A stretch of 64,000 nucleotides of DNA from an uncultured Candidatus Saccharibacteria bacterium (GCA_964633425.1 CAZWFX010000001.1:74687-138686), one strand, 5' to 3'. Positions 21,740-55,880 are shown, counted from the stretch's first letter. Program-made: numbers and translations. The notes: generated by a model from the sequence alone, not told the origin.

Positions 21740-21784
21740 CACTGGAGTTTTTGGCAAATTTCTGGTACTGTTCTAGGCAGACCT

Positions 21785-35231: not shown

Positions 35232-35687
35232 TCACAAGCCCAATTCCCTCAGCGCCTCCAAGGCGTCGTCGAGTGTCGAGTGGGGCCTCTCATACTGCGT
35301 CCCCCACGAAGGATCTTGGTGGTCTGGATCCGCGTGCCCCTGGTGGCCCAAAACAGCGTGGAGTAGCTCGTGGGCTAGACTGGTGCCGCTAAATTGCCTG
35401 GTCCCAGGCTCCCAAGCCACCTGGCCAACATACAGATCAGGCCAAAAAACTCCAGAAGCACATAGATCCATCAGCGGCCCCTTCATGTTGTACCTTAGAT
35501 AAAATCCTGTCCCGTAGGAACAGTTTAGATTTTGGCTAAAAACCCAAAGGATTTCAGGGGGTTCCGTCGTTTGTTTGTAAACACCATTCCAAACCACTGC
35601 GATAGCCAGGTCTTGGTTTGGAAGTTTTAGGGGTTTTGCGGAGCAACCGATGAGAAGGGCGGCGATCAGGGCGATTACGTACTTCAA
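35232..35687 (-). CDS. Secreted lipoprotein zinc metallopeptidase (HExxH)
   Basis: Lipobox LIGCSA. SLAHELLHAVLGHQGH contains HExxH plus a downstream His. Strong SD GGAGGTGA with a TTG start. Confidence 0.5.
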   Translation of the reverse strand: MKYVIALIAALLIGCSAKPLKLPNQDLAIAVVWNGVYKQTTEPPEILWVFSQNLNCSYGTGFYLRYNMKGPLMDLCASGVFWPDLYVGQVAWEPGTRQFSGTSLAHELLHAVLGHQGHADPDHQDPSWGTQYERPHSTLDDALEALRELGL

Positions 35688-35761
35688 GGCTCACCTCCAT
35701 CTTACTATAGATAAAGCTTAATGGCCGGTGGGCCAAAAAGTCAAGGGCTATATTTGGTAAG

Positions 35762-36328
35762 GTGGAACACAAAAAGAAGCCTGTTGGTGGAGAGCAGCCC
35801 AACAAACTACCTCTTTTCCTAGACAGGAAGAGGAAGGTGTCCTACTCGTTGTATCGGTGGGATAAACCCGAGGAGGTGCTTTATCGGGTCAACAAAGAAT
35901 CAACTCTTCGGCTTTTGGTGGAGGAGGCGATGGCAAAAGGGGTGTCTCTGGATCGGGTAAACCTAACCAATGCGTACCTGTACGGCCTAACCACACCCAA
36001 GACTCATAGGGTTATGCGATCCGCCAAGTTGGACTGGTCCCTACTGGCGTATTCTCAGTGGACCCTGGTGGATTTGTCGTATTCTTCAATACAAAAGGCG
36101 GTTTTAACAGGCAGTCAGTTTAGGATGTGTGTCTTTGAAGAGGTGGATTTTGAAGAATCTGATCTAACCAGATGTCGTTTTGTGGAGTGCAGGTTCGTTC
36201 GCTGTAACTTCAAGAACACCGTTGCTAAAAAGACCAAGTTTTACAAGTGCCTGTTTGACAGGTGCCTTAGTCAGCCAGATCTTGGTTTTAAGTCTCACTT
36301 GATAAAAACCCAAAAAATAGACTTCTAG
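35762..36328 (+). CDS. Pentapeptide-repeat protein
   Basis: Clear 5-residue periodicity: VDLSY SSIQK AVLTG SQFRM CVFEE VDFEE SDLTR CRFVE CRFVR CNFKN. GTG start preceded by GGCTATAT. Confidence 0.5.
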   Translation: MEHKKKPVGGEQPNKLPLFLDRKRKVSYSLYRWDKPEEVLYRVNKESTLRLLVEEAMAKGVSLDRVNLTNAYLYGLTTPKTHRVMRSAKLDWSLLAYSQWTLVDLSYSSIQKAVLTGSQFRMCVFEEVDFEESDLTRCRFVECRFVRCNFKNTVAKKTKFYKCLFDRCLSQPDLGFKSHLIKTQKIDF

Positions 36329-36780
36329 AAGGCCTGGAGGGTATACCGAAGACAGTCCCAGTCTTTGGGTACTGGATTGGAGACGATCTTATGCCACTGC
36401 TTGGCCACCTTCTCATCGGTAACCCCGTGGACGTTGCGGTTTTTGCTAGGGAGAGTGAAGGTGACCACAACTACTTGGAACCCATGCTCCTTCCCGATCT
36501 GGTAGTAAGGAGACATCTCCTTTACGGTCGTGTTGGTGTTGTCGATGATGATCTTGATTGGTTGAATGAATGGGTCGGTGCTGGAGCCTCTGGCCAACTC
36601 CTTGGCCAGTCTCAGGCATCTACCATGAGCGTCGCCCAGTTTGGCTGGGTCGAACTTGTAGGTGTCGTCCTCTTGGACAAAGTAGTCGTCCGCCGAGCAG
36701 ACATAGCCACCAAGGGTCTTGGCAAAGGTAGACTTCCCAGACCCAGAAACCCCTCTTAGAATAAACATGGTGTTTGGCAT
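36325..36780 (-). CDS. P-loop nucleotide/polynucleotide kinase (T4 Pnk kinase-domain-like; no phosphatase domain)
   Basis: FILRGVSGSGKSTFAK resembles T4 Pnk IILTIGCPGSGKSTWARE. IIIDNTN resembles VIISDTN. Only 151 aa. Confidence 0.5.
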   Translation of the reverse strand: MPNTMFILRGVSGSGKSTFAKTLGGYVCSADDYFVQEDDTYKFDPAKLGDAHGRCLRLAKELARGSSTDPFIQPIKIIIDNTNTTVKEMSPYYQIGKEHGFQVVVVTFTLPSKNRNVHGVTDEKVAKQWHKIVSNPVPKDWDCLRYTLQAF

Positions 36781-36823
36781 TGGGTGATTAGAGCACAGGA
36801 CCTACGCAGCAGTCAAGCACGAA

Positions 36824-39800
36824 TTGTTTGACGCACCGCGTTATGCATCACGACAGCCAGTAATCTTTACACCAGTGAGTCAGTTACCTACGCCACAGAC
36901 AAGATCTCAGATACTCGGCTCTATGGTCGAGTATTTTCTTTCAAAGTACGGGCTTAAATCCCTTAAAACTGGAAGTCCTGTGCTTTCTCTGTTTGAGGCT
37001 ATCGCCCAGTCTCAACTGAGAACCTCCGACGACATCTTTTCAACCCTCCGAGGCATCGCCCTGGAGTTCGCCACCGGCCAGTCCCTGGACCGGCTCGGCC
37101 TGGACGAACTGACACCTCGACTGGTCGCTAAAACCGCCAGCGGTTATACCACATGGGGAGACTCCTCCTTTACCAAGATCTCCACCGTGATCTTCCAAGG
37201 ATCTGGCCCGGTAATCGTAGGCTCTAGTTCCATCGCTGTCTCCGACGCTACCGACTTCCCCACAGTCGGGACCCAATACGTCTACCTCGGAAGAGGAACC
37301 TCTAATTACGAAGGTCCATTGGAGATTTCTTCCATCGACAATCCAGGCGTAACTGGTGGAAATTATTGGAGAATTAATCTAGTAGGGTCGACCACAAGGT
37401 ATCATGCACCTGGCGAGTCCGTTATTTTGGCACAGGGAGGCAACCGGACCATTGCTTCGGGCCAGCTCGTTCAAACGGCCCAAGGGGCGCTTTCAGCGCC
37501 TTTGCGGTTCAGGGTGGTATACACTGCCACCATCCCTGACGGTGAAGACACTTTAGAAAACGTTCTTGTCACGGCAGTCCAGACAGGCCTTTCTGGAAAT
37601 GTTATCAAAGAGGGTATCAACACCGTTGTCTCTCCTCCATATGCGGGAGCCACGGTCTTCAACCCTTCTCCATTTACGAATGGTAGAAACCTTGAGCGGG
37701 ACGAAGACTACAAGGAAAGGATCAAGCTCCGGAGGCGATCTCGGACGCTTGGTACGGCCACCGCTCTAAAGACCTACGCTCTTGGAGTTGAGGCTCCAGA
37801 CGAGAATGCCACGGTCACGTCGACCTCCCTGGTCACCAAGGAGGGAGAGCCGGCCGTTCTTTATATCGATGACGGTACCGGATACGAGGAAAGACACTCC
37901 GGAGTCGCGGAAGAGGTCTTGATCGATCTGGCATCTGGCGGGGAACAGTATTTTAGGGTTTCTCAGGTGCCGATCTCCAAGGCCGTGTCGCTGACCAGCC
38001 TTTCAGCTCCTTACGTACTACGAGCAGGGAAACTCGCGTTTAGCGTGGGCGGCGTGGTTACGGAACACACCTTTGACGCCAGTTCATTTTCTTCAATTTC
38101 TTCAGCTTCGGCCAACGAAGTATGTTCCTCCATTAACTCAAATGCTGGCCTGAACTGGTCCGCCAGAACTTACGACGGCGGGTCCAAGATCGCCGTTTAC
38201 GCTAAATCAGATACCAACGATGACGTCCAGTTGTCGACCGCCTCCTCAGATGACGTAAATGATGTCCTTGGATTTGGTTCTGAGAGGGTCCTTACTACCA
38301 GCCTATACAAGAACGATCTGTTGCTTAGCAAGGACGGGTTGGCGGCGACTGTTTATTCCAGACCCTTCAGCGAGTGGCAGTCTCTGGCCAGCCCCCAGGG
38401 CCTTTCCCTGAGCGTTGATGGAGTCCAGATGGACTACACGTATGTCTCCGGAACCCCTACGGTTGGACAGCATACAGCATTTACAGACCAGGACTTTATT
38501 GACGCGGAAACGGGATATAGCACCCTGGGCAAGAATAGCTTGGCCGCATGGGCGAAGGTGCTAAATTACCGTATACCTGGAATTACAGCCACTGTCGTAG
38601 GTAATCGACTGGCCATCACCTCCAACAGAGGAAAGTCTGACAGCGCGTCAGTACAGACACTGTCCGGGACACTCGTTACTAATTCTGTGTTTTACGAGCA
38701 GGCCAGTTCACTGTCGTCGTCTATCGGGAAAAATTCAGACTACACGATCAATCGTAACACAGGGGAGATTCGTCTCCAGACACCACTGATCGCAGGAGAC
38801 AAGCTGTCTCTTGGTACTTCGTACACCAGGGCCTTTTTGCAGACCCCCGACGTTCTTTCTACCGTGCTGTCTGCCGATGCCAATATGTGGTTCGTTGTGG
38901 ATGGCCAGGCGGAGGTGGTTGCCATCGGGGAGATGCTTGGGCAGGCCTACACGCTAACCAAGACGGCCACGGCGTGGGGAGCCTTACAGGCCCTCACCAA
39001 CTCTCGACTGGCTGCAAATGCGGAGGTCGGAGACTGGCTGATTGTCTGGGATTCATCCCCCAACGCCCTTGGCGTTTCTGGGGCCTATCGGATCAGCCGC
39101 GTGACTGGAACTGACGTGGAGTTTGAGGTTGACGGAACTACGTCCAATGGCTCCGGCACCTTTGCGGAAGGCGGCATCGCCCTAGTAAGAACCAGTCAGC
39201 AAGTGCAGAAGCTTACCCTGGCGCGACTTACAGGTGGAACCCCAAACACATATACGGCCACCTCTTTGGCTAACCTGATTGATTTGCGAGGTGCCACTGC
39301 GTCCGTCTATCGCACCAACAAAGTGCGAATTGCCACCAATTCATTTGGTGACGTAAGGGACATTGCTCTGGTGGCTCAAGATCAGGCTGCGGAAGACTTT
39401 GGTCTTAGCTCGTCCAGCTACACAGACAACCTTCAGGGACATCTGGGATCGATTGAGACTTCCAATGGGCAGGTCGGTACTCCCGTCTTTCAGTCCCTTA
39501 ACGTATCTACGGCAGGTGCCACTACGATAGACGTGGATAACTGGTCGTCGTCGGGGATCTTCACAGATCCGCCCAGCCATTATTCCGCCATGGGCCTTTT
39601 TAGCCCATCCTATTCTTTGGCCCGTCCCCGGTTCGGATCGAACAAGGGCTTTGTGTCTTCTCTTTCCGACACCACTCCGGGAGCACCAGACACGCTGGTT
39701 CTAAGGAACACGGCGGCCCAGGACTGGCTTGAGACCACACAGCTAGCCCTTTTAAGTCCGTACTGCCTATCCTGGAACGATCAACTCAACCTGATTGTTG

Positions 39801-42562
39801 ATCAGGATACCACCTACGGCAGATTCGCGATTCCGTTTGCCAGAAAGGTGACGCCTACGACGTCAACCTATGGGGCCACCAACGCCTTTACAGACGCCGA
39901 CAACGGTGGCGTTTCTCTGGCAAGGGCCTTTGGGTATGGTTCTAACGTTTTTGACTGGGGAGACTTTGCAGTCTGGATGTCTCCTAGAGTCTTAATTACG
40001 CAAGACGCCAACATCCTATGGAGGTATTACCGTCCAGGCCCAGACGGCAACAACATGACCTTGCGGTATGCACTGCCGGCCAACCCAGATCTGACTCCGG
40101 CCCTGGAGTCAGATCCAACGGCTGGGGCTGACACCGAGCTGAGGGTCGTGCTGGGTTCTGGCAACCTCCGCTCTGGATACACCCTACCAGCCAATTACCC
40201 GATGGGGGTTGTAGCCCCCAGTACAGACGCCGGAAGCATGACCTCGGTCTATTACATGACCGGCCTCAAGGTCATTTCCTATCAGAGAACAACAAACGTT
40301 GCTACGGTTAGGTTTGAATTCCCCAGCGCAGACGTTACCGAGTCTGGGTTGGATAACAACCCAGTTAAGCTGTATGCCTTCTCTACGCTGTCAGCCGCTC
40401 CTTCTGGGACATGGGACTTCAGCGCCGTGACTCTTTCTGAGTGGGTCCCCGCTTCTGGAGTCTACGACAAAGCCGTCTTTGCTGACGTCGGGGTCGACGT
40501 ACCACTAACTGCCGGAAATGTTGGTGTAATGTACTTTAGCCCAACAGCGACAGCTTCCTTCCTTGGAGGATCTCCGGCGGTGGCCCAGGGAGACTACCTT
40601 AGGGCAGAAGCCGCGAGTGGCCTGCCAGCAGACTTCACTGGGTTTACGGCCAGCATCCAAAACGTCCCAGGAACAGATCTTTACCACCTAAAGGTCCTGG
40701 TCCCAAGCCTGGCAGTAAACACCGTAATCCAGTACGCCAATGTGGTGGATACCTCTCAGTTTAAGATCTTCGCCAATGCTGGGTCTACCGCTAATTCCAT
40801 CGTTTCTTCCATCAATGCCCTGGGAGGATTTGTATCAGGGACGGTGATTTCCGGTGGCACCAATGTCATTACGGAATCAACAGAAGAAGCTCAAGACAAC
40901 ATTTCTCCAATTCCAACCCTAAAAGACGGAATCAACTACGTCCAGTCAACGACATCCCCTGTCCTGATCAGTGACAACTACACCTTTACCTTTAAGGACG
41001 GGATCACGGCCGCCTTGGCCACCGGGACCGACTGGCTTAACGAGGACGTCTACCTCGTTCCTACAACACCGAAGAACGTGGTGGACTGGATGAACATCCT
41101 TGGGGTTACTGGCCTTTCTCAGGTGGCTGAGATTGTGGCCAGCGACGCGGGCAAGCGAGTTCAGATCTCCAGCCTAACCACTGGCAGCGGCGGATCCATC
41201 CAGGCCATTGGAGGTAAGGCCAACTCGGCAACAGCTTCCGTCGTGGGATCTTCCCAAACAGTTGGATCTCAGATTTTGGCCACGGTTCGCTCGTCCGACG
41301 TCACCGGCATGTTTGCTGGTTGCTGGGTTTCAGTGGATAACGCACTGGGCCTGGACAAGACAGGGTCTATCTTTAACGGATCTTCCAAGATCGAAACCCT
41401 GTCTTCGACCGGAACCATCACCTTTGGCGCAGCCACGTCCCTATACACAGAAATCGTGGCCTCGTCGAAAACAAACCTGGCAGTTTCAATCCAGAAGGTC
41501 GACGACTTTGTCCTGATCTCGGATTCCGGACTTGGAGCAAATACCATAGTCGGCGCCCTGGGCGGAGTGTCTGAGAATGACTACGTCCAAATCAAAACCG
41601 TTACCGCCAGCCAGTCAGGTACGGACGTAAACGAGCTTAATATGGGCCTGTTTAAGGTTGTCCGAGTCGATAGCACCAACGGTCTGGTTTGGATTGAAAA
41701 CTCCACCGCAGTTGACCAAAACCTCTGTGACGTGGACCTGAGATTCTTCGACGAAAGCTCCATTATGCCAGGAGATACGTTCCGTATCGACACTCCATTC
41801 TACGGGGTGTCCAATATCGGATCGTGGCTGATTACCGAAGTCGGAAATGACTTCACAGACGACTCGGTGATGACCGTGAGTATCTCGGACAAGTCCATTA
41901 CCGACACGACCAGCGGAGTGGCCCTTGGATCCGACTACGTATATCTTAGGTTCACCGGCGCCCCGTATCGCGGCATCAAGCAAATTTACTCGATTTCTCC
42001 ATACGACTCCGATGCCTCACTTTCGTACATCAAGCTATCCGGAACCGCAGGTCAGTCGTCCATCGGAGCCGCTGGAGAAACAGTCCTTACGGTCTTGGAC
42101 AAGCTATCCTTCCCGCTCACCCTTAACGCAGGCCTGGACGGGTATTCTTACTCAACCGGACTGATCAGGGAAGTCAATAAGGTTATCTATGGGGATTTGT
42201 CCAGCCCGTCTGTCTACCCAGGAGTAGCAGCGGCTAATTCCAAGATCAACATCGAAGGCCCCTTGGTCAAGAAGATCAAAATGGGATTCCAAGCCAGAAT
42301 CTTTAAGGGATTTTCCAAGTCCGTTGTGGCCGAAAAGATCAAAAACGCTGCGGCCGGTGCGATCAACTCTTACGGGGTCGGTCAGTCCATTAGCGTCTCT
42401 GACGTTATTAAAAAAGTACAGCAAATTGGCGGCCTTAGGTCCGTCGTTGTGTTGTCCCCTGTATACAACTCGGCCAATGACCTTATTTCAGTCCAGCCGT
42501 TTGAACGGGCCATGGTTTTGAATCCTTCGTTGGACATTTCGGTAGTCTTTGTTGGTGAGTAG
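36824..42562 (+). CDS. Giant virion protein (1912 aa), baseplate J / T4 gp6-like N-terminus
   Basis: The N-terminal conserved region resembles the Baseplate_J family. Long beta-rich Ser/Thr/Gly body. It heads the tail/baseplate module. Confidence 0.45.
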   Translation: MFDAPRYASRQPVIFTPVSQLPTPQTRSQILGSMVEYFLSKYGLKSLKTGSPVLSLFEAIAQSQLRTSDDIFSTLRGIALEFATGQSLDRLGLDELTPRLVAKTASGYTTWGDSSFTKISTVIFQGSGPVIVGSSSIAVSDATDFPTVGTQYVYLGRGTSNYEGPLEISSIDNPGVTGGNYWRINLVGSTTRYHAPGESVILAQGGNRTIASGQLVQTAQGALSAPLRFRVVYTATIPDGEDTLENVLVTAVQTGLSGNVIKEGINTVVSPPYAGATVFNPSPFTNGRNLERDEDYKERIKLRRRSRTLGTATALKTYALGVEAPDENATVTSTSLVTKEGEPAVLYIDDGTGYEERHSGVAEEVLIDLASGGEQYFRVSQVPISKAVSLTSLSAPYVLRAGKLAFSVGGVVTEHTFDASSFSSISSASANEVCSSINSNAGLNWSARTYDGGSKIAVYAKSDTNDDVQLSTASSDDVNDVLGFGSERVLTTSLYKNDLLLSKDGLAATVYSRPFSEWQSLASPQGLSLSVDGVQMDYTYVSGTPTVGQHTAFTDQDFIDAETGYSTLGKNSLAAWAKVLNYRIPGITATVVGNRLAITSNRGKSDSASVQTLSGTLVTNSVFYEQASSLSSSIGKNSDYTINRNTGEIRLQTPLIAGDKLSLGTSYTRAFLQTPDVLSTVLSADANMWFVVDGQAEVVAIGEMLGQAYTLTKTATAWGALQALTNSRLAANAEVGDWLIVWDSSPNALGVSGAYRISRVTGTDVEFEVDGTTSNGSGTFAEGGIALVRTSQQVQKLTLARLTGGTPNTYTATSLANLIDLRGATASVYRTNKVRIATNSFGDVRDIALVAQDQAAEDFGLSSSSYTDNLQGHLGSIETSNGQVGTPVFQSLNVSTAGATTIDVDNWSSSGIFTDPPSHYSAMGLFSPSYSLARPRFGSNKGFVSSLSDTTPGAPDTLVLRNTAAQDWLETTQLALLSPYCLSWNDQLNLIVDQDTTYGRFAIPFARKVTPTTSTYGATNAFTDADNGGVSLARAFGYGSNVFDWGDFAVWMSPRVLITQDANILWRYYRPGPDGNNMTLRYALPANPDLTPALESDPTAGADTELRVVLGSGNLRSGYTLPANYPMGVVAPSTDAGSMTSVYYMTGLKVISYQRTTNVATVRFEFPSADVTESGLDNNPVKLYAFSTLSAAPSGTWDFSAVTLSEWVPASGVYDKAVFADVGVDVPLTAGNVGVMYFSPTATASFLGGSPAVAQGDYLRAEAASGLPADFTGFTASIQNVPGTDLYHLKVLVPSLAVNTVIQYANVVDTSQFKIFANAGSTANSIVSSINALGGFVSGTVISGGTNVITESTEEAQDNISPIPTLKDGINYVQSTTSPVLISDNYTFTFKDGITAALATGTDWLNEDVYLVPTTPKNVVDWMNILGVTGLSQVAEIVASDAGKRVQISSLTTGSGGSIQAIGGKANSATASVVGSSQTVGSQILATVRSSDVTGMFAGCWVSVDNALGLDKTGSIFNGSSKIETLSSTGTITFGAATSLYTEIVASSKTNLAVSIQKVDDFVLISDSGLGANTIVGALGGVSENDYVQIKTVTASQSGTDVNELNMGLFKVVRVDSTNGLVWIENSTAVDQNLCDVDLRFFDESSIMPGDTFRIDTPFYGVSNIGSWLITEVGNDFTDDSVMTVSISDKSITDTTSGVALGSDYVYLRFTGAPYRGIKQIYSISPYDSDASLSYIKLSGTAGQSSIGAAGETVLTVLDKLSFPLTLNAGLDGYSYSTGLIREVNKVIYGDLSSPSVYPGVAAANSKINIEGPLVKKIKMGFQARIFKGFSKSVVAEKIKNAAAGAINSYGVGQSISVSDVIKKVQQIGGLRSVVVLSPVYNSANDLISVQPFERAMVLNPSLDISVVFVGE

Positions 42563-42593
42563 CTACAAAAACGGCAATCTTTTAAGGTAGAAT

Positions 42594-44696: not shown

Positions 44697-44697
44697 T

Positions 44698-46200: not shown

Positions 46201-46203
46201 CCC

Positions 46204-46803: not shown

Positions 46804-46924
46804 CGATCTGCTAGACGTCGATACCATCATTGGATCTACCCCAGCCTACTTTGCTACCGGTGGCGTTCATCTAACAACAGTTGGAATGGACGCGATCTAC
46901 GCTTCATTCCCAACCCTAACTTAA
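46520..46924 (+). CDS. SGNH/GDSL hydrolase-like fragment (blocks II-V only)
   Basis: VWIALGTNDIA (GxND block II) and GGVHLTTVGMDAIY (the DxxH block, with Asp replaced by Gly). The Ser-containing block I is missing, and a TAG lies directly upstream in this frame. Confidence 0.4.
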   Translation: MEQRGAAMSNWMLGVVSPVKDATVWIALGTNDIAASETSTNLILYCKQLCQLARAGGAKRLIVSTIPTFTGITGPQDTNRTQYNAWGRSLPGIFDDLLDVDTIIGSTPAYFATGGVHLTTVGMDAIYASFPTLT

Positions 46925-46933
46925 AAGGAACCA

Positions 46934-47447
46934 ATGTCCAACTACATCACAATCGATCCACTATCCGTCTGGCGGTGGATCTGCTTCCAGCGTCTTTGAA
47001 GAGGCGTCGAGTTCAGATTTCAACACCTATGCCTTCAACTGGTTCTCCAACAGCCAGGACAGCTCTGGCCCAGTAGACGGTGGAATCGGCGGAACCGGCT
47101 TCGGAGCCAACAGTGTTACTTGCCGCAACGTGTCAAATCGCTACGAGTTTTCGCTGGCGCCCAAGCACAAAATCGTCCAAATTGTCACGGCATCTAGGGC
47201 TGTGTCTCTGATCGACGACGTAATCCTTGTTGACACGACCGGTGGAGCAGTCACGCTTACGCTGCCAGACGCGACATACGGGGCTCGCGAGCTGACTATT
47301 AGGCGCAAGGCGGGTACGGCCAGTATCACGGTCACCCCGTACGGCACCCAAAAATCAACGGGGCCTCAAGTCTGACCATCAGTGATGACTTGGCTACTCC
47401 GATTCAATCGGACTGGTCTAACTGGTGGACACTCAGGTAGCCACCCC
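46934..47447 (+). pseudogene. Small gene disrupted across three reading frames
   Basis: An ATG with an AAGGAA SD at 46934 runs only 22 codons. The coherent sequence continues in the +1 frame (...GGSASSVFEE...ITVTPYGTQK) up to 47375. After the run cccaaaaatc it continues in another frame (INGASSLTISDDLATPIQSDWSNWWTLR). Confidence 0.35.
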
Positions 47448-47482
47448 AACGCTCCCTCGTTCCCCCCAGTAATCTTTAGGAG

Positions 47483-50400
47483 GTGCCTACCCTTGGTCAC
47501 CTCTTAGGATTCTTGCTTTCTGGAGACGCTTTTTCGGTGGATTTCGCCGAACATGACTCCGGCAAGATCTACCTCACGTTCTCCCAAACACCCAAAACCA
47601 CCGACGCGGCCGCCGCAAACGACGGCCTTAACCCATCTAACTATACACTTTCCGGAGGCTTCACCAACGATATTGTCTTGGTTGAAACTACCGCAGATCC
47701 GACCATTTTAGCTCTAACGCCGCGATATCCTTTAACAAATGGATATTGGCAGATCCAAGTTGCCGCTGCTGTTGTGGATTCAACTCTGGCCAACACGATG
47801 GGGCTTCCCAACAGTTGGACCTTTTTGGTTGGTGGCATGTTTGAGGCGGAGGTGGTGTCGCAGGGTGCTACGAGTCCGATGGCCCTGGACGTTTTGAATG
47901 AATTTTTGAATCCGGCCTATGTAGGCAAGACCAACTGGGACAACATCATGGAGTCTGTGGCTGTGGCCGAGCAGGTGGCTTATGACAACGCCAGGCTGGC
48001 ATTCGATCAGACCCACATTTCTTCTGCTGTAGGGAAATATCTTACACAGAGGGCCGGAGACGTTGGCCTGGCTCGCCAGCAAGGAGTCTGGCTAACAGAC
48101 GACAAATTCAGGCAATATGTCATTAGATCGACCAATAGGAAGCTAACGGAAGAGTCTCTCCTGTCTCTCTTGGAGGTGTTTTACGGGATTGATTCCGTTC
48201 GTGCCACCTGCACTTCAGTCTTGCCAGAGCCCTATGCTATCACAGAAGGCGATGAGCTGGATGTTTTGATTGACGAGAGGGACTCCTTCAAGGTGGTCTT
48301 CTCTGACACCGACTTCGGGATGCCAGGCCAAGGGACTGCGATTGAGGTGGCTGCGGCCATCACCAGATGGGCGGCTCTGAATGGCTGCACGGCCATTGCT
48401 CTACCGTACCAGGATCCAGAAAGTGGCGAGACGTATGTCAAGATCTATTCCTATGGTATTGGGCTGGGTTCTACCGTACGGGTTACCGGAGGGACCGCTC
48501 AAGAGCACCTACACTTCCCTACATTTCTTGACATTTACACGGCAGATCCACTCCCGTCATGGGACGTCACCTATGACTCCGTAACACAGAGGGTGCGGTT
48601 TACAGTACAGGGCGTCGGAGTGGCCTTAAACCCCAACCTGCAAAGTGTCTTGGTTGGCGATTACGTTAACATTACTGGCACGGAATTTGCAACAGACAAT
48701 CTCGGCAGCTACAAGATCTTGGATCTTTCGGTCGAGTACACGTTCGAAGCCACACCTCAATTGATTATGTGGTTTGAGGTGGAAAATCCAAACGGATTTA
48801 CACAAACAGTAACACAACTAGAAACCAATTCAATCTCGTTTTATCGTCCTACCAAGGTCAACTCTTACGTAAGCCCGGCGACTTCCGTTATCGTGGCCGA
48901 CTTTGAAGATGGAGTTACGGTAAAACTACCCGCGACCTCTTCGGCCGTCGCCCGTGAGCCGTACTATGCCGCGTATCTGCATTCTCCAACAGAAGTGGAA
49001 ATTTCCAGCTATGTTGTAAAAGACGGCACGGCCACCATAACGACATCTACGGCGCATGGTCTGTCTGCTGGACAAAGGATTATGCTGGAGGGGCTCACCC
49101 CAACCAACGTAGAGCCGACCACCACGCCAGCCGTCTCTGGGGTGTCCGCGACGTCGCAGGTGACTGTCTGGTCTTCCACCGACACCGGCGTCATCCATTC
49201 CTATGGATCTATGGCCAAGATCAACGACACTCGCGTGGTAAGTATGCAGGGGTTCGATCACGGAGGGACCCTTTCTTCCATCACATTAACCAACGATGGC
49301 AATACCACAGACATCGTAACGACCGAGGCTGGTGGCCTCAGAACTTCCAATTTTAGTTCCATCGGGACCACCGGAGGAGCAGCGGTGTCTCACTCCAATG
49401 CAGTGCCGTATTCGGTCAACTGGGCGGCCATTCTTGGAGAACCAGGAGCCTTTGTTACTGGCGGAATTCAAGAAAGTACCGGTATCTATTCTGGTAGCAC
49501 CCAGTCTCTGTTTGTGCTGACCGACACCGGAACTGTTACGGTAAACTCAAGCGCCATGACGCAGGCTCACGCAGGTCATGTCATGGGAGCGGTCGGAGAT
49601 GACCTTTACGTCTTCGGAGGAATGGGAGCCAATTGGCAATTTACGATACCCAACTGTATCTCTTTCAACAAGGTAACTGGGACATGGACCACCAGGGACT
49701 CGATGAACAGTCCCGGTCTAAGCCCAAACACATATGCGGCTGGTAGATTCGAAGGAGCGGTTTCGGCCCTCTCCAATGGCGAAGACTTTATGGTCACCGG
49801 AGGAAGGTCGTTGGCCATGGGACCCTACTACGACGGTCCTACAGTGGCTCTGTGGAGGCTAGACGACAGTGCTGCGGCTCCTGGTTATTTTGGACCCTAC
49901 GGCTCTGGCATGACAGGGACCGACACCAACCTGGTAACAGCCGCCCCAACTTCTTACAATGCCAATTCCAAAAATGGCGTGGCGTTCCCACTGGCGACGT
50001 CCAAGCTACAAGGAACCCCCAACGCTGGGCTAATCAACACCCTGGTGTCTAGATCTTTTACGGTCGAAGGATGGTGGAGATACGAAGGCTCTAACCCACA
50101 AAACGCATTTTTTGCAGTTTCGGCTACCGGAGGAGGTACCCCAAATAACCTGCTCTTTGGCTTTGGGCCCAGCTACTCAGCCACCACTAAGTGGGGGATC
50201 TGGTGGGAAAATCAATCAGAGGCCAGAGTCCTTAGAGAGTCTTCTGCCACAATTGCCTCTACCGTTTTAAGGGAGTGGAATTATTGGGCCGTAACCGTTG
50301 CCCCAGATACCGCTGCAGACGAAGTAATCGTTAGTTTGTACATCAATGGCTTGCTGTTGCAGTCCTGGCCTGGAGTCAAGACGGCTTTCGGCGGATCCAA

Positions 50401-51793
50401 CACCACCCTTTACGTTGGCCAAGATCCCAATGCAGGCTACGGAGCCACCGCGTGTGGCGCGGGTATTAGTCAGATTCGCGTCTCTAATATTTGTCGTTCC
50501 GCCACTCAAATCTGGCAAGCCTATACCGAATCAACAGGAGAGGTCTTTTGGCACGTTCCGTCAGATCTATCTCCATCCACGACCACCCCAGACAGAATTG
50601 GCGTGGTTTATAATTCCACCGACGTCTATGATTCCAGCGGGGATTCTTGGACCAAGGGCCCGCCCATGACCTACGCCAGGTTTGGCCATTCTCAGGTCAC
50701 CCTTCCTACTGGAGAAATCTTGGTGGTCGGAGGTATGGGCTACGATCCAACCAAGTTCGGCCTGGGCACCGTTCCTGAGATCCTGAGAGAATGTGAAATT
50801 TGGTCCCCAACTGCCAATCGCTGGAGACCAGCAGGAAGACTTCCTTCCGGAGCCGGTGGATTTGTGGCGGCAGTCCTCAATGGCAATGACGTTTATGTTG
50901 TTGGATCTATTGATGGATTTGCCTACAAGTACGATTCAGTGAAGAGAACTTGGTCTAGGGTGGCCACACAGTATTCACCTGGGACCACCCACCGGCAGGC
51001 GGAATGTCTAAACGACGTGATTGTTGTGACGGGGGGATCTGGGGTCGATGGTCTCGCCGCCGCGAACGACAGGGATCTTCTGGTCTTAAACAGCCCATAC
51101 TTTTACAAGGGATGCATGGATGGGGTCTACGAGGCACTCACGGCGTTTGGATCTACCATTACCGTCTATGACCCCAAGTTTCCAGCGTATGCGGTTGGGA
51201 CTGGTGGGATCGTAACGGCCATGAAGGCGGTGGCGGACACGGATCTAAACATCCCAGGGCCATTTTTAATGTCTCCCACAGAAGGGGTCTTTACCACAAA
51301 GTACAGGACCACATTAAACGAGGATGTATTGGCCAATCAGACTTACACTCAGCTAACCCTAACCGACGTGGCTGACTGGCCAGAAGACGGGTACGTGGTT
51401 ATCAATTTTGGCCAATCAAATCAGATTGGTCCCATCAGGTACTACGCCAAGACCGACGACTACACCATCCTGATAGATGGATCTGTGGTCTTTGACGATG
51501 ACTATGCCATAGGCTCTTACGTGGACGTGTTGGTTAACAATTCCCCCTACGTCCCAGAATCTCCGACCTCACTTGGAGTGTTTTACCTTACGGACTCACC
51601 GTCTGGTAGGGCCGCAGCTCAGAGGGCGGTCGAGGACGCCGTGGCGGCTGGAGTTACCGCCAATATTTCCATCGCCTATCCGGGAGATCGGGGTCTTGGC
51701 GCAGAAGGATACGCCCAGTCTGGATCTGGCAAGCTCTCTGATGTCGTAGAGGTCTTTGCCCATGAATCTGATGGCTTGCAGGAGGACACGTAA
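47483..51793 (+). CDS. Giant tail/baseplate protein (1436 aa) with Kelch-type beta-propeller repeats and a LamG-like domain
   Basis: Kelch-like repeats VGDDLYVFGGMG, GEILVVGGMGYD, NGNDVYVVGS, NDVIVVTGG. LamG-like segment TVEGWWRYEGS...WNYWAVTV...LYINGLL. The start is uncertain because the GTG overlaps the AGGAGG. Confidence 0.45.
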   Translation: MPTLGHLLGFLLSGDAFSVDFAEHDSGKIYLTFSQTPKTTDAAAANDGLNPSNYTLSGGFTNDIVLVETTADPTILALTPRYPLTNGYWQIQVAAAVVDSTLANTMGLPNSWTFLVGGMFEAEVVSQGATSPMALDVLNEFLNPAYVGKTNWDNIMESVAVAEQVAYDNARLAFDQTHISSAVGKYLTQRAGDVGLARQQGVWLTDDKFRQYVIRSTNRKLTEESLLSLLEVFYGIDSVRATCTSVLPEPYAITEGDELDVLIDERDSFKVVFSDTDFGMPGQGTAIEVAAAITRWAALNGCTAIALPYQDPESGETYVKIYSYGIGLGSTVRVTGGTAQEHLHFPTFLDIYTADPLPSWDVTYDSVTQRVRFTVQGVGVALNPNLQSVLVGDYVNITGTEFATDNLGSYKILDLSVEYTFEATPQLIMWFEVENPNGFTQTVTQLETNSISFYRPTKVNSYVSPATSVIVADFEDGVTVKLPATSSAVAREPYYAAYLHSPTEVEISSYVVKDGTATITTSTAHGLSAGQRIMLEGLTPTNVEPTTTPAVSGVSATSQVTVWSSTDTGVIHSYGSMAKINDTRVVSMQGFDHGGTLSSITLTNDGNTTDIVTTEAGGLRTSNFSSIGTTGGAAVSHSNAVPYSVNWAAILGEPGAFVTGGIQESTGIYSGSTQSLFVLTDTGTVTVNSSAMTQAHAGHVMGAVGDDLYVFGGMGANWQFTIPNCISFNKVTGTWTTRDSMNSPGLSPNTYAAGRFEGAVSALSNGEDFMVTGGRSLAMGPYYDGPTVALWRLDDSAAAPGYFGPYGSGMTGTDTNLVTAAPTSYNANSKNGVAFPLATSKLQGTPNAGLINTLVSRSFTVEGWWRYEGSNPQNAFFAVSATGGGTPNNLLFGFGPSYSATTKWGIWWENQSEARVLRESSATIASTVLREWNYWAVTVAPDTAADEVIVSLYINGLLLQSWPGVKTAFGGSNTTLYVGQDPNAGYGATACGAGISQIRVSNICRSATQIWQAYTESTGEVFWHVPSDLSPSTTTPDRIGVVYNSTDVYDSSGDSWTKGPPMTYARFGHSQVTLPTGEILVVGGMGYDPTKFGLGTVPEILRECEIWSPTANRWRPAGRLPSGAGGFVAAVLNGNDVYVVGSIDGFAYKYDSVKRTWSRVATQYSPGTTHRQAECLNDVIVVTGGSGVDGLAAANDRDLLVLNSPYFYKGCMDGVYEALTAFGSTITVYDPKFPAYAVGTGGIVTAMKAVADTDLNIPGPFLMSPTEGVFTTKYRTTLNEDVLANQTYTQLTLTDVADWPEDGYVVINFGQSNQIGPIRYYAKTDDYTILIDGSVVFDDDYAIGSYVDVLVNNSPYVPESPTSLGVFYLTDSPSGRAAAQRAVEDAVAAGVTANISIAYPGDRGLGAEGYAQSGSGKLSDVVEVFAHESDGLQEDT

Positions 51794-52231
51794 ATGCAAT
51801 CACTTAACCTAATGCACGGAGCCGGGGTCCTTTGTTACTTTAACGGGGTCCTGCTTGGGCGTGTCACAGAATTCAGCTATGAGTATTCGGTTGGAGGAAA
51901 GGCGATTAGGGGCCTGGATTTCGCCATGCCCTTTGAGCTGCCTGACGGTAGCATTTCTGTGACCGGTACTATCAAATTATTGAGGCTGTCTGGCGACGGC
52001 GGGGCCCAGGGCATCGGGGCCTTACCCCAAGTCCACGAATTTGGCAACCTAAAGTACAGCACGTTAATGATACTTGACAGGAACACTGGAAGGCCTGTGT
52101 TTAAGAGTGATTATTGTAAGGTAACCTCTGAAAGCTGGGGGGTTCCGGCCAAAGACTTGGTTCGTGGCTCTATTTCCTTTACTGCCATTGGCTTTAGCAA
52201 TGAGGTAGCCACGAGCAATTTGGTGTATTAG
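51794..52231 (+). CDS. Hypothetical virion protein
   Basis: ORF between the structural genes. Confidence 0.4.
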   Translation: MQSLNLMHGAGVLCYFNGVLLGRVTEFSYEYSVGGKAIRGLDFAMPFELPDGSISVTGTIKLLRLSGDGGAQGIGALPQVHEFGNLKYSTLMILDRNTGRPVFKSDYCKVTSESWGVPAKDLVRGSISFTAIGFSNEVATSNLVY

Positions 52232-52296
52232 CGATTGTGGCGTTTTGCCACATGTGGTCCGTAGCCTCAACAACACAGTAATCTTTGTAGAGACAA

Positions 52297-55200
52297 ATGA
52301 GCGTAACTAGGTCTAAAAATTGGGTGGCAGGTCAGCGAGTTGATGTCCCCCATCTTCGTGAAGTGGATAGTTCAGTAGCCGGTGACTTCGATGTCCTGGC
52401 CGGACACATCCTGGCAGGAAACGTATCCTTAATCGTCAATGGTTTTAGGATCTTAACCACCGGTCTGGTTGGTCAGCCAGCCACGACCATCCAGGTGGTA
52501 ACTGCAGGGTCTGGTCTTATTCATCCACTGGCGACGTCTAGCGGATCCATCCACAAAGTCCCGGAAGATCGAGACACCGAGGTTTTGTCTACGACGAACG
52601 CGAGGGTAACCGGGTCTTTTACGACATCGGCGGTAAATTACATTGGGATTGATCTGGTCAGGGTAGCCGACGACGACACCTCAGACACGGTTCAGTTTAT
52701 TGATGAGGCGACCAGGCAAGAGGTACCCAAAAGGGTCCCTTTGGCCAAGACCATGGATTACAAGATTCATGTTTCCACCCAGGACTTTACTTCGACGCCT
52801 GGGCTGGCACCTCTGGCCATTGTAACCACCGATGCTTCAAACAACGTAGTCACAGTTCAAGACGCCAGGGATTTGTTCTTTAGGTTGGGTGATGGCGGGA
52901 CCTTACCCGATGGGCTGGCGACCTATGTTTGGCCAGACAGGACGGAGGCTGCGGACAATTTTGAGTCTGGTGACAAATCTCTGGCCAGTTTCAAGGAATG
53001 GGTGGACGCTGTCCTAACCCGGATTTGGGAACTTGGCGGCGGTGAATACTGGTACTCGCCTACAGCAGATCGTAACGTCAGGATGATCCGGACCGGGTCG
53101 GCCATTGTCAGTTCCGGGGACTGGTTTGCCTGGGACGGCACTAACGTTTCATGGCAAGGCCTCAAGGTCATCTTTGACAACTCTACCGGGTATTACAACG
53201 AGATTAAGGATCAGATTGCAACCTCTGCTGGTCTAACAGATCTGGCTGACGGCGAGTGTATCTACGTTGACCTTGATCGTACGCAGAACCTCAGTGGAGG
53301 ATCTGCTCTGCAGCCAGTCAAGGCTGTGATGTCAACACTTGGAACTCCAAGTGTTCCTGGATCTAGATTCGTCTTCCTTTGGAGGATCGGTTCGGAAGTA
53401 TTTAGCCGAGATGGTCAGTGGAAGGTCAACGCAGCCCTGCCGCCAGCCACCACATCGGCCATCGGCGCGGTTAAACTAAATCAGACACCAGGATCGTCTT
53501 CGGCACCGGTAGTTCCGGCCATTGACACCAACGGCCTCATCTCGGTCACCGCGACGGTAGTTGGATCTACGTCCTACTATGCGGTAAACGGAGTCGGTGC
53601 TAACTCTGGGGCCAACACCAGCTCTTCTGGCGTTAAGGGCACCGGAGGCACTTCGTCTTCGGGCGGATCTTTCCACGGAGGAAACGGGATCGAGGGTGTC
53701 GGAGGCGCATCTGACTTTGGAAATGCCGGAATTGGAGTTAAGGGTACGGGCGGAGCTGCGACCAATGCAGCCGGTGCTGCAGCCAGGGGAGGTTCTTTCA
53801 CAGGAGGCAATGGAACTGGCGCAGGAGCCGCTGGCGTAGGTGTTTATGCTACAGGAGGAACCACCGGAGCAGCTGGGGCACAGGGAGCTGGAGTCCAAGC
53901 CGTTGGAGCAAATAACGCAGGAGGTGCCGGAGACGCAGGAACTGGTGTTATTGCTACAGGAGGGACCAATACCACAGGGTCCGCTGGTTCTGGAGTAGAA
54001 GCTACCGGCGGATCTGTGTCTAATGCCGCAGGAACGGCAGGTGTCGGTGGAATTTTTGTTGGAGGAGACTCTACAGGAGCAGGAACCGGAGCGGCAGGCG
54101 TAACTACTGTTGGAGGAACCTCTGGTGCTGCAGGAGGTAGCGGAAACGGACTAGAAGCCACCGGAGGATCTAATACTTCTGGTGCAGCCGGTAATGGACT
54201 GGCCGGAACAGGCGGTGCCACAACTTCAGGAGATGCCGGGGCTGGACTTGTTGCTCAAGGCGGAGCTGCCACAACAGGAACGCCAGGAACAGGAGCCGCT
54301 GTTACTGGCGGCAATGCCTCTTCAGGAAACACCGACGGAGGGACGGGAGCAACTATAACCTCCGGGAACGGGAACGGCACCGGACATGCCGGCTCTGGTC
54401 TTGTCGTGTACTCCGGAAGTGGGAAGACAAGTCCTGGTGTGGCCATTGTTAAGTCTACCCACGACTCAACTACAGATTACGCAAATTCCCAAGGAGAACA
54501 GCTTTCTCTTCAGAAAAGCGTGTCGGCTGGAGGCAAGGATCAGGTAGACGCCTCCCTTGTCGTCTATGATTACGGTTCGAACAAGCTTTTCCACATTCCA
54601 CAATTTGGGGCTCCGTCTTCTAGATACGCGAGCTTTAAGGAGTCTTGGACGCAGGGCTCGACGTCTGAGGTCGAGGCTATGTCTTGGACCAAATCCGTAG
54701 ACACAGGTGGCGGAGTGGGTACCTATTCTCTTAATGGTCCCAGCTACGCCTCTTCCTATAGAGGCAACTACGTTACGCTGTCCTCTCAAGGGTCTTCGTC
54801 TACGGCACATGCCAGGCTTGAAACCACCAGGGCAATGTTCCCGTTACCCACGATTACTGGCCAGACCGGTTACGTAAGTTACTTGAGTGCTGAGATGATT
54901 GTTGGCGTGGCAAACACCGAAGCCAATTCGGACCTGAATCTGTGGGTTGGATTTTCAACAGATCCTTCCGATCCTACAGGATCCGGCAACGGTACGATTG
55001 CCTTTAGATACCTTGAAGGAACCGATACCGGCACCAACTGGTACGCCTACACCAAGGCAGCAGGCGGTACCGGAGGATCTTACGAGACCGCCACCACAAC
55101 AGGCAAGTCTATTACCAATACGGCGATTCCGTCAAAGACCTTGAAGATCGAACTTTATGGAGCAAACACGGAGAGATCTGGTGGTAGTGGTACGGCGGTG

Positions 55201-55374
55201 TTCTGGGTTGATGGGGACGTCGTATTGGTGACTACCTCTACGATGCCGACCAACGCACCCGTAAAGTTCTTTGTATCAAGTGCGTCCGATCCAATTCCGC
55301 TTCCGCTATTTTCAACAGACCTACATGTAGGTGAAATTAGTATACATTGGGTGGTTCAGGGCCCAACCCGCTAA
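52297..55374 (+). CDS. Gly-rich tail fibre protein (1025 aa)
   Basis: A long array of GGxxGxxG-type repeats (ATGGTTGAAGAQGAGV...) from ~53580 to 54420. TAATCTTTGTAG late motif upstream. Confidence 0.5.
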   Translation: MSVTRSKNWVAGQRVDVPHLREVDSSVAGDFDVLAGHILAGNVSLIVNGFRILTTGLVGQPATTIQVVTAGSGLIHPLATSSGSIHKVPEDRDTEVLSTTNARVTGSFTTSAVNYIGIDLVRVADDDTSDTVQFIDEATRQEVPKRVPLAKTMDYKIHVSTQDFTSTPGLAPLAIVTTDASNNVVTVQDARDLFFRLGDGGTLPDGLATYVWPDRTEAADNFESGDKSLASFKEWVDAVLTRIWELGGGEYWYSPTADRNVRMIRTGSAIVSSGDWFAWDGTNVSWQGLKVIFDNSTGYYNEIKDQIATSAGLTDLADGECIYVDLDRTQNLSGGSALQPVKAVMSTLGTPSVPGSRFVFLWRIGSEVFSRDGQWKVNAALPPATTSAIGAVKLNQTPGSSSAPVVPAIDTNGLISVTATVVGSTSYYAVNGVGANSGANTSSSGVKGTGGTSSSGGSFHGGNGIEGVGGASDFGNAGIGVKGTGGAATNAAGAAARGGSFTGGNGTGAGAAGVGVYATGGTTGAAGAQGAGVQAVGANNAGGAGDAGTGVIATGGTNTTGSAGSGVEATGGSVSNAAGTAGVGGIFVGGDSTGAGTGAAGVTTVGGTSGAAGGSGNGLEATGGSNTSGAAGNGLAGTGGATTSGDAGAGLVAQGGAATTGTPGTGAAVTGGNASSGNTDGGTGATITSGNGNGTGHAGSGLVVYSGSGKTSPGVAIVKSTHDSTTDYANSQGEQLSLQKSVSAGGKDQVDASLVVYDYGSNKLFHIPQFGAPSSRYASFKESWTQGSTSEVEAMSWTKSVDTGGGVGTYSLNGPSYASSYRGNYVTLSSQGSSSTAHARLETTRAMFPLPTITGQTGYVSYLSAEMIVGVANTEANSDLNLWVGFSTDPSDPTGSGNGTIAFRYLEGTDTGTNWYAYTKAAGGTGGSYETATTTGKSITNTAIPSKTLKIELYGANTERSGGSGTAVFWVDGDVVLVTTSTMPTNAPVKFFVSSASDPIPLPLFSTDLHVGEISIHWVVQGPTR

Positions 55375-55844
55375 TCGCAAGTGTACTCCACTAGGAGTTG
55401 ATAGTCTTCCGGGGTTAGTTCCGAAACCCCACAAACCGTCCCATTCATCAAATGACATCCTGGGTGCAGGGTCTCATCCATGTGGGCCTGGATTCCGATG
55501 ATGTGGCCCATTTCGTGAGCTACCACGTCTGGACCGGCTCCGTTAGCCACCCAAAAAATTGCGTCGACTGCAATTGAATAGCCCCACAGGGTAAGGCTGG
55601 CCTTTGCGTCCATTTGTTCTGCTCTAATAAACATCTGTCCTGGAATTGGATGTCCCACCTTGAATCGGTAACCGGCTGGTACCCAAAAGTCCAGGCCTTT
55701 TTGGACTACCTCGTCTGAGAGTCCGGAGTTGTTTTGGACTATGTATTCTTGGCCTGTGTTGTAGTAATTCTGGCACTCAATTTTGCCACAACCACCAAGG
55801 AGAAACGCCAACGACAACATCAATGCGGACATGTTTTTGCTCAT
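55371..55844 (-). CDS. Secreted lipoprotein metzincin-like zinc peptidase
   Basis: Lipobox LLGGCG. HEMGHIIGIQAH matches HExxHxxGxxH. A sigma70-like promoter lies immediately upstream. Confidence 0.55.
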   Translation of the reverse strand: MSKNMSALMLSLAFLLGGCGKIECQNYYNTGQEYIVQNNSGLSDEVVQKGLDFWVPAGYRFKVGHPIPGQMFIRAEQMDAKASLTLWGYSIAVDAIFWVANGAGPDVVAHEMGHIIGIQAHMDETLHPGCHLMNGTVCGVSELTPEDYQLLVEYTCD

Positions 55845-55850
55845 GTCCTC

Positions 55851-55880
55851 ACTCTAAGCAAGAGCGGGCCGGGTTGTCAA
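55851..55880 (-). promoter_or_regulatory. Sigma70-like promoter TTGACA-18-TAGAGT for the metzincin lipoprotein gene
   Basis: The minus strand reads agggcTTGACAacccggcccgctcttgctTAGAGTgaggacATG. The -10 lies 6 nt from the ATG, so the transcript would be leaderless. Confidence 0.4.

Follow-up and report, generated by a model that had tools for sequence, protein, structure and literature searches.

A 64,000-nucleotide (nt) stretch of DNA recorded for an uncultured Candidatus Saccharibacteria bacterium (GCA_964633425.1, CAZWFX010000001.1:74687-138686; the whole stretch is here called the window) is phage DNA, from a large contractile-tailed phage distantly related to Myxococcus phage Mx1, and it encodes two small lipoproteins, the products of open reading frame 1 (ORF1) and ORF2. 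Both products carry a conserved lipobox and a conserved HExxH site, and ORF2 is exchanged between phages together with the tip of the adjacent tail fiber. The export and zinc-hydrolase character predicted for both products is well supported by their sequence features.

In the explanation that we favor, each protein would be exported via the Sec/lipoprotein pathway, held to a membrane from the periplasm through a lipid at its N terminus, and folded around a zinc-binding HExxH helix stabilized by disulfides. ORF1, probably cotranscribed with a tail-anchored coiled-coil inner-membrane protein, would cleave a protein or a peptidoglycan-linked peptide of the periplasm or envelope during late envelope remodeling or lysis. 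ORF2 would be a small metzincin-like protease, exchanged as a single cassette with the receptor-binding end of the adjacent fiber, and would act on or at the cognate surface receptor of that fiber, in a lytic-conversion or receptor-inactivating role; its logic would be analogous to that of T5 Llp, although it is probably enzymatic. We put the probability of this explanation as a whole, covering both ORFs and their envelope roles, at about one half. The two genes and their upstream signals are the following (aa, amino acids).

35232-35687, minus strand: ORF1, a 151-aa lipoprotein (LIGC followed by S) with a zincin-like domain, from a large uncatalogued phage family
35691-35698, minus strand: ORF1 Shine-Dalgarno sequence GGAGGTGA, six bases upstream of the TTG start
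55371-55844, minus strand: ORF2, a 157-aa lipoprotein (LLGGC followed by G) with HEMGHIIGIQAH, a candidate Met-turn methionine M133, and C24, C130, C138, and C156
55851-55880, minus strand: promoter-like TTGACA-18-TAGAGT, 6 nt before the ORF2 ATG

Two genes for predicted exported lipoproteins

Both ORFs lie where the original prediction had placed them, with a lipobox and an HExxH motif each, and this combination is rare. Among the 349 six-frame ORFs of the window (at least 45 aa), HExxH occurs in three, and a PROSITE-like lipobox rule is satisfied by nine; only ORF1 and ORF2 combine the two features, against a chance expectation of about 0.08 ORFs, and the combination is therefore unlikely to have arisen by chance. 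Homologues of both ORFs retain the N-terminal lipobox. Nonsynonymous divergence (pN) is far below synonymous divergence (pS), at 0.21 versus 0.71 (dN/dS, ~0.11) for ORF2 compared with L001, the locus of a near-identical phage, and at a ratio of ~0.21 for ORF1 compared with locus L006. Both are real genes under purifying selection. The reading that their motifs are chance occurrences in nonfunctional ORFs could draw on the public record, which gives ORF1 as an 84-aa fragment, and on the very small number of ORF2 relatives, but it is excluded by 493 representatives of the ORF1 family with conserved N terminus and motif, by the strong purifying selection, by an ORF1 structure model with a pLDDT of 95.9, and by synteny across loci.

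The public version of ORF1 is truncated through the choice of start codon. The NCBI-sourced protein (P0005) begins at the internal Met68, which strips it of the lipobox and signal peptide and of half of the domain. The family alignment shows instead that the TTG at 35687 is the correct start, and the Shine-Dalgarno sequence that had been predicted for it is present.

The lipoprotein calls are based on a pattern rule together with conservation: a positive n-region, a hydrophobic h-region, and a lipobox of the form [LVI][ASTVI][GAS]C, with the cysteine about 15 to 35 residues from the start. ORF1 begins with MKYVIALIAALLIGC followed by SAK and has K2, then IALIAALL, then IGC15; ORF2 begins with MSKNMSALMLSLAFLLGGC followed by GKIEC and has K3, then ALMLSLAFL, then LGGC19. 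Additional conserved cysteine pairs in both families fit an oxidizing compartment. Outer-membrane sorting is predicted as likely from the residue at position +2 (Ser in ORF1, Gly in ORF2) by the E. coli rule; sorting of +2 Ser or Gly lipoproteins to the outer membrane follows E. coli and Myxococcus rules. The proposal that the two are exported, lipid-anchored proteins of the zinc-peptidase type, encoded opposite the structural operons, is thus supported by their lipoboxes and by the conservation of their sites. The notion that they form a similar pair was not upheld: BLASTP aligned only the HExxH stretch (E = 0.037) and hhalign only the signal peptides, so common ancestry was rejected, and the two belong to unrelated families.

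Although both genes lie on the strand opposite the structural operons, they are antisense to no gene, contrary to the initial description. Each occupies a slot of its own, and the sole overlap is one of 4 nt between the stop of ORF2 and the stop of the fiber gene. The further idea that they are independently expressed morons is a poor fit for ORF1, for which we found no sigma-70-like site upstream and no terminator downstream, and which is part of a two-gene unit in a conserved island. For ORF2, the predicted TTGACA-18-TAGAGT is present (55880-55851, minus strand; 10 of 12 matches) and ranks first among the sigma-70-like sites of the region. This site is partly conserved, since the element CTTGAC...TGCTT is kept in the window, L001, and locus L002, whereas L002 lacks the TAGAGT hexamer. 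Against autonomy of ORF2 are the lack of any terminator found after it, its place at the end of a cluster of three genes on the minus strand, and its normal G+C content. The number of promoter-like sites was not above the shuffled expectation (4 found versus 2.6 ± 1.9). A sigma-54-like -24/-12 match noticed by eye upstream of ORF2 was discarded because it is not conserved in L001 or L002.

Neither ORF is deviant in G+C (0.535 for ORF1 and 0.496 for ORF2, with neighbors at 0.50 to 0.54). Hidden Markov model searches of the six-frame ORFs of Mx1 recovered no homologue of ORF1, of ORF2, or of the gene that follows ORF1 (here called its partner), and we consider all three to be accessory genes because of this absence. 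The label of moron, which denotes an autonomous unit with its own promoter and terminator that is inserted into a conserved module and often deviates in composition, thus suits the two genes poorly.

Conserved metal sites and candidate folds

A word-indexed search with ORF1 returned only near-identical copies and one homologue at 41% identity. An exhaustive HMMER profile search (E ≤ 1e-3), in contrast, recovered at least 493 family representatives, each standing for a cluster at 50% identity and nearly all of them 135 to 165 aa long. The family is present in IMG/VR viral contigs and was not found in 185,579 reference genomes with the one search pattern used. In an alignment of 106 members with 30 to 49% identity to ORF1, W33, H106, H110, and H123 are invariant (106/106), and the lipid-acceptor cysteine (104/106), E107 (105/106), and D120 (98/106) are nearly so, as are a cysteine pair (C56 and C76), P44, W48, and G79. 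The HELLH of ORF1 (residues 106 to 110) lies in the segment HELLHAVLGHQGHADPDH, and the family motif reads HExxH-x6-G-x2-D-x2-H. Thus, the HExxH of the originally proposed HExxH...H site stood, whereas the nearby histidines H115 and H118 are not conserved; the candidate third metal ligands are instead D120 and H123. The spacing HExxH-x6-G-x2-D is reminiscent of the GTxDxxYG element of aspzincins, a tentative lead only. Members lacking a lipobox, and longer members, have an N-terminal transmembrane (TM) anchor instead, which suggests that the domain is always exported and tethered. The N-terminal extensions of the longer members were considered as fused domains, a reading that was rejected, as they are miscalled starts or TM anchors.

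The AlphaFold model of ORF1, built from the family alignment, has a pLDDT of 95.9 and a pTM of 0.87. It orders a helix (residues 25 to 36), five strands, a helix carrying HExxH (104 to 115), and a C-terminal helix (138 to 148), a modeled layout that matches the minimal zincin topology. The HExxH is predicted to sit on an alpha-helix with both histidines and the glutamate conserved, as is general for zincins. Foldseek gave no significant neighbor of this model (best E of ~1 in the PDB; best E of 0.02 in BFVD, with a TM-score of 0.43, to an IrrE-like protein), yet the weak fold lists are dominated by zincins, including lethal factor, IrrE, Spartan, minigluzincin, and M48, and a profile search of the PDB gave serralysin (E = 0.015) and Spartan (E = 0.03). 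No characterized zincin family showed significant structural or sequence similarity. Given the zincin layout, the weak zincin matches, and the lack of a significant neighbor, we call the ORF1 family a new zincin-type family outside any named one.

ORF2 presents a different picture. Among ~15 billion proteins, it has three relatives only (two distinct homologues), at 65%, 66%, and 53 to 56% identity, and no further ones were found in IMG/VR or JGI metagenome scans. All of them retain the lipobox, HExxHxxGxxxH, D123-E124, the Met of CH[LV]MN, and four further cysteines. The original prediction had assigned ORF2 the full metzincin motif, which proved not to be the case: in HEMGHIIGIQAH, whose HEMGH spans residues 110 to 114, the third histidine is at +12, as it is in all four family members, and not at the +11 of the metzincin HExxHxxGxxH. 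The sequence consequently departs from the motif HExxHxxGxx(H/D). The subthreshold sequence matches are nonetheless all to metzincins, namely, Reprolysin_4/5 (E of ~0.02), M7, karilysin, and fragilysin, and none reaches the curated cutoffs (Reprolysin_5, 15.8 bits versus 27; M7, 11.6 versus 25; Fragilysin, 11.9 versus 190.7). All four sequences keep M133 in CH[LV]MN, and this residue lies in the would-be Met-turn region (residues 119 to 143), where the pLDDT of the AlphaFold model is below 50. Built from four sequences, that model is poor overall (pLDDT of 58.6); its element order fits a metzincin fold, and its top Foldseek hits in the PDB are myroilysin (E = 6e-3; probability, 0.97; TM-score, 0.38 to 0.42) and BMP1. 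On these sequence and model grounds, the description metzincin-like is justified for ORF2, and membership in the metzincins is not.

Searches against Pfam, PHROGs, NCBIfam, and PADLOC returned no significant family for ORF1, ORF2, or the 106 ORF1-family members, five of which gave SprT-like hits at E of ~1e-3; a role in a defense system was rejected on this basis. As to an assignment to M10, M12, or M43, which had been put forward for checking, neither protein reaches the threshold of any curated family.

The conservation of the metal sites also bears on the idea that the two proteins are noncatalytic binders in which a zincin scaffold plugs or masks a receptor stoichiometrically or inhibits a host envelope enzyme. 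Llp and Cor are small lipoproteins that act by binding (PMC9586334), and the motif spacing of ORF2 is atypical, both of which fit such a role. However, the glutamate and the metal ligands are nearly invariant in 106 diverse ORF1-family sequences and invariant in the relatives of ORF2, which points to a maintained active site, and we consider pure binding to be quite unlikely.

The fiber-tip cassette and the surroundings of ORF1

The evidence that connects ORF2 with the host cell surface comes from its genomic neighborhood, which comprises the following features.

52297-55374, plus strand: tail-fiber-like protein, 1025 aa, convergent with ORF2; its C-terminal ~490 aa codiverge with ORF2
53900-55870, no strand: mosaic block of the fiber C terminus and all of ORF2, 56 to 85% identical to L001
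55884-56501, minus strand: E/A/K-rich protein, 205 aa, upstream of ORF2; absent from L001
56501-57409, minus strand: protein of 302 aa whose N-terminal region is of the tailspike pectate-lyase type, first gene of the minus-strand cluster; absent from L001
57452-57964, plus strand: VanY/Peptidase_M15_4 endolysin, directly divergent from the ORF2 homologue in L001

In the window as in L001 and L002, ORF2 converges with and abuts the end of a homologous fiber gene, although different genes lie upstream of it. The flanks of the mosaic block are mostly 95 to 100% identical between the window and L001, with a few 100-nt windows at 84 to 90%. Within the block, the comparison with L001 gives a pS of 0.705 and a dN/dS of 0.063 for the fiber C terminus and a pS of 0.712 and a dN/dS of 0.11 for ORF2, so that synonymous sites are saturated (dS of ~2) in both parts. 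Saturation in both parts between near-identical flanks indicates that the block came in as a whole from a distant lineage; the fiber C terminus and ORF2 are one exchanged cassette under purifying selection. That ORF2 is swapped together with the fiber tip suggests that it acts on the host cell surface. Superinfection exclusion, receptor trimming, and cell-wall or lysis functions, the roles proposed at the outset for the two proteins, all remain leading candidates, and the receptor idea for ORF2 gains support from the cassette.

A 1.3-kb segment of the window (55976-57312), covering most of the gene for the 205-aa protein and the gene for the 302-aa protein, is absent from the otherwise 99 to 100% identical L001 and is therefore an indel in the host-range region; its absence places the ORF2 of L001 directly divergent from the endolysin gene. 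The 205-aa protein has a counterpart with a similar C terminus in L002. Because in both the window and L002 a cluster for tailspike- or fiber-like proteins ends with ORF2, and because ORF1-family genes often lie inside tail modules (for example, in L013 and L018), the two products might instead be proteases directed at exported or virion proteins of the phage itself, maturing fibers or tailspikes or processing neighboring exported proteins. Tailed virions, however, are assembled in the cytoplasm, whereas both ORFs carry export signals and conserved cysteines of the disulfide type, and L001 has ORF2 but no tailspike-like gene; we regard this possibility as highly improbable.

Around ORF1, and in one case next to the endolysin, the relevant features are these.

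33862-34257, plus strand: small secreted protein, with a signal peptide at its N terminus and a weak DPBB (RlpA-like) signature of the lytic-transglycosylase type
34844-35206, minus strand: ORF1 partner, 120 aa, with an N-terminal coiled coil and a C-terminal TM helix (tail-anchored type)
35762-36328, plus strand: pentapeptide-repeat protein, divergent from ORF1, in a conserved island also seen in L005, L006, and L020
36325-36780, minus strand: AAA_33/polynucleotide-kinase-like P-loop protein, in the same conserved island as ORF1
58007-58549, plus strand: third HExxH protein of the window, 180 aa, with AHELVHVEQF and a TM segment, directly after the VanY endolysin

The partner gene lies 26 nt downstream of ORF1 in the same orientation, making ORF1 the first gene of a two-gene unit. 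Partner homologues accompany ORF1-family genes at eight or more separate loci: they follow the ORF1 homologue immediately in L004, L005, L006, and L020 and lie within ~1 kb of it in L014 to L017. The four-gene island of ORF1, partner, pentapeptide-repeat, and AAA_33 genes, which Mx1 lacks, persists in relatives with as little as ~60% identity in the baseplate protein; contigs L011 to L013 and L019 are too short for informative context. In the partner and likewise in all of its homologues, the TM helix is at the extreme C terminus (residues ~95 to 115 of 120 in the partner, with a tail of 5 to 10 residues). Pfam XhlA gave no match to the partner at E values up to 1, and the PHROG hits are weak: phrog_2990 of unknown function (7e-5), the "hemolysin" phrog_937 (2e-3), and a holin family (0.097). 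A spanin reading of ORF1 and its partner was rejected, because the TM helix of the partner is C-terminal and not N-terminal, as an inner-membrane spanin needs, and because ORF1 is globular.

Other genes near ORF1 homologues also encode membrane or exported proteins. Homologues of the DPBB protein are encoded beside or close to ORF1-family genes in L011 and L006. In L014 and L015, a small 2-TM protein follows the partner, and the L015 copy is homologous (40% identity) to the protein encoded at 61898-62182 (plus strand) of the window, which has no family match. That window protein, of 94 aa, has a holin-like look, with two hydrophobic segments and a charged Pro/Lys-rich tail. The third HExxH protein of the window has weak DUF6782 and eCIS_core (DUF4157-like) matches, and a homologue at 28% identity, again with HExxH and a TM segment, occurs in the ORF1-family gene cluster of the IMG/VR contig L015. 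Lipoproteins resembling ClpP/NfeD serine proteases are encoded a few kilobases from ORF1-family genes in L014 (10630-11367), L015 (10658-11440), and L017 (~10537-11139), and as an observation in its own right, they represent a second type of exported phage protease. On the AT-rich metagenomic contig L003 (806-1386), the ORF1 homologue P0002 is followed by two small lipobox ORFs of 86 and 107 aa, which looks like a lipoprotein gene cluster. The neighborhood of ORF1 is compatible with a set of envelope-directed phage proteins forming a lysis or envelope-remodeling module.

This setting raises the question of whether one or both lipoproteins are lysis accessories that, in the final stage of lysis, cut outer-membrane-peptidoglycan tethers or outer-membrane proteins in place of spanins, which the phage seems to be without. 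In favor of such a function are the closeness of ORF2 to the VanY endolysin gene, directly divergent in L001; the XhlA-like architecture of the ORF1 partner with its weak hemolysin and holin hits; the holin-like arrangement in L014 and L015, where the partner precedes a small TM protein; the adjacent DPBB/RlpA-like secreted protein; and a Listeria precedent (PMC8235301). No typical spanin pair (a lipoprotein with a coiled coil carrying an N-terminal TM helix) was seen in the window either, although this search covered 64 kb of a genome of ~156 kb. Against it, ORF1 and the endolysin are 22 kb apart, the clusters of L014 and L015 had no identifiable endolysin, the resemblance to XhlA is mainly architectural (no Pfam XhlA hit; PHROG E values of ~1e-3 to 1e-4), and the cassette behavior of ORF2 and the fiber tip is left unexplained. 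We consider it a possible alternative, though a rather unlikely one.

Several of these observations, together with others, weigh against the explanation that we favor. Neither protein has a significant match among curated peptidase families, the ORF1 model lacks a significant structural neighbor, and in ORF2 the third histidine departs from the metzincin motif while the model is least reliable over the would-be Met-turn. The sorting rule is borrowed from other bacteria and may not be that of the host. The linkage within the cassette may reflect mere physical proximity within a recombination tract. The tail-anchored topology of the partner implies that its bulk is probably cytoplasmic, without contact with a periplasmic enzyme, and the distance between ORF1 and the endolysin counts here as well.

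The phage itself was placed by its proteins and gene order. Among the products of the window are a DnaE polymerase split in two, a terminase that carries an intein-like insert, the portal protein, a baseplate-J protein of 1912 aa, several fiber-like proteins, and the VanY/M15 endolysin. The nearest isolate is Mx1 (portal protein, 45% identity; DnaE, 40%), with which the window has the gene order of baseplate, fibers, and endolysin in common. No DNA-level match was found by megablast of 20 kb against 50,697 phage records, and tblastn of ORF1 and ORF2 against the same records gave no match. A scan of 185,579 reference genomes with one degenerate pattern and one exact 36-mer, aimed at a host or prophage origin, returned nothing, and the exact 36-mer was not in IMG/VR either. 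The G+C content of the window (50%) is uninformative in this respect, because Mx1 itself is at 55.5% while its host is at 69%. Rfam and tRNA searches of the window found no RNA family and no tRNA. The myxophage literature makes no mention of these genes, and we found no paper pairing HExxH with phage, spanin, or lipoprotein.

Three further features of the window were observed in passing. The large terminase ORF (24363-28538, plus strand; 1391 aa) has LAGLIDADG homing-endonuclease-like and thymidylate-synthase-like PHROG matches, which suggest intein or insert content. The DnaE-type polymerase (20045-24331, plus strand) is encoded as two ORFs, 20045-21739 and 22052-24331. Another candidate lipoprotein ORF (12907-13278, plus strand; 123 aa), with ...LLLSGC followed by AAL, lies in the replication or early region.

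Known systems and biological meaning

Neither zinc metallopeptidases nor phage lipoproteins are new as kinds of protein. The novelty lies in three points: the large ORF1 family of tethered mini-zincins, restricted to phages and so far unnamed, which has a fold variant of its own and a conserved membrane partner; the orphan ORF2, a metzincin-like lipoprotein that moves together with a fiber tip; and a corrected annotation of ORF1.

Among the metzincins (MEROPS MA(M), including M10 karilysin and serralysin, M12 astacin, reprolysin, and myroilysin, and M7 snapalysin), ORF2 finds its closest likenesses. It has HExxHxxG, a later His, and a conserved Met 12 residues further on, and its subthreshold sequence matches and best fold hits are all metzincin. 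Snapalysin is small and disulfide-rich, and ORF2 is likewise small (mature length, ~138 aa) and probably disulfide-rich. ORF2 differs in that its third His comes one residue late, it reaches no family threshold, and the model of its Met-turn is unreliable. The ORF1 profile aligns weakly to the strand and active-site helix of serralysin, but ORF1 is without the conserved Gly at +8 or a Met-turn and has Asp and His at +10 and +13 from the second His.

ORF1 is closer in general form to the minimal zincins (SprT/Spartan/Wss1, ImmA/IrrE of M78, minigluzincins, and M48), having a single HExxH domain of ~130 aa with a sheet, an active-site helix, and a C-terminal helix. In Pfam, the PDB, and BFVD, it matches SprT, Spartan, IrrE, and M48 only weakly, and none of these matches is significant (TM-scores of at most 0.43). 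The M48 proteins LoiP and YcaL of E. coli are lipoprotein zinc proteases that act on envelope proteins. Minimal zincins are mostly cytoplasmic and directed at DNA or repressors, or are much larger, whereas the ORF1 family appears always to be exported and has its own signature of W33, P44, W48, C56-C76, and G-x2-D-x2-H.

To our knowledge, the envelope-acting lipoproteins of phages (Llp, Cor, and the outer-membrane spanins) are few and all nonenzymatic. With the spanins Rz/Rz1, ORF1 and its partner have in common a lipoprotein gene beside a gene for a coiled-coil membrane protein. They differ in that the partner has its TM helix at the extreme C terminus with a coiled coil predicted to be cytoplasmic, the gene order is reversed, and ORF1 has a globular, enzyme-like domain where the outer-membrane spanin is short and proline rich. 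Llp of T5 is a small lipoprotein that is encoded beside the receptor-binding pb5 and brings about superinfection exclusion by blocking FhuA (PMC9586334). ORF2 resembles Llp and T1 Cor as a small lipoprotein that adjoins a fiber gene and covaries with the fiber tip, but it has no sequence similarity to them (no tblastn hit in the 50,697 phage records, which include T5-like phages). It is also about twice as large as Llp and has a conserved zinc site of the catalytic type, whereas Llp binds FhuA without catalysis.

A secreted metzincin of phage derivation is known from Listeria, where Mtz, of the Mtz/Tim pair, sensitizes the cells to phage lysis (PMC8235301). It offers a parallel as an exported metzincin of phage origin that alters the envelope and makes lysis by phages more effective (PMC8235301). 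The Listeria host is Gram positive, and the lipoprotein of that system is a TIMP-like, inhibitor-like partner and not a protease.

In a more specific form of our proposal, ORF2 would be a metalloprotease that clips, from the periplasmic or outer-membrane side, the very surface protein recognized by the fiber tip of its cassette, amounting to an enzymatic lytic conversion, and the ORF1 family, as a widespread class of envelope proteases specific to phages, would with its tail-anchored partner carry out the outer-membrane step of lysis in phages that lack spanins. We hold this conjunction to be unlikely. If it were true, destruction of the receptor by ORF2 would provide superinfection exclusion and would protect progeny from debris. 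Enzymatic receptor destruction, or a protease replacing spanins, would in either case be of high interest.

Genes such as ORF1 are easily missed, because public annotation truncates it to a signal-less fragment, and the family alignment and model presented here could support the definition of a new family. Taken together, the size of the ORF1 family, its confidently predicted fold without a close structural neighbor, and its conserved membrane partner suggest that phages of diderm bacteria may remodel the envelope by a route so far unexplored, and the cassette of ORF2 and the fiber tip offers a directly testable link between a host-range determinant and a putative exported enzyme.

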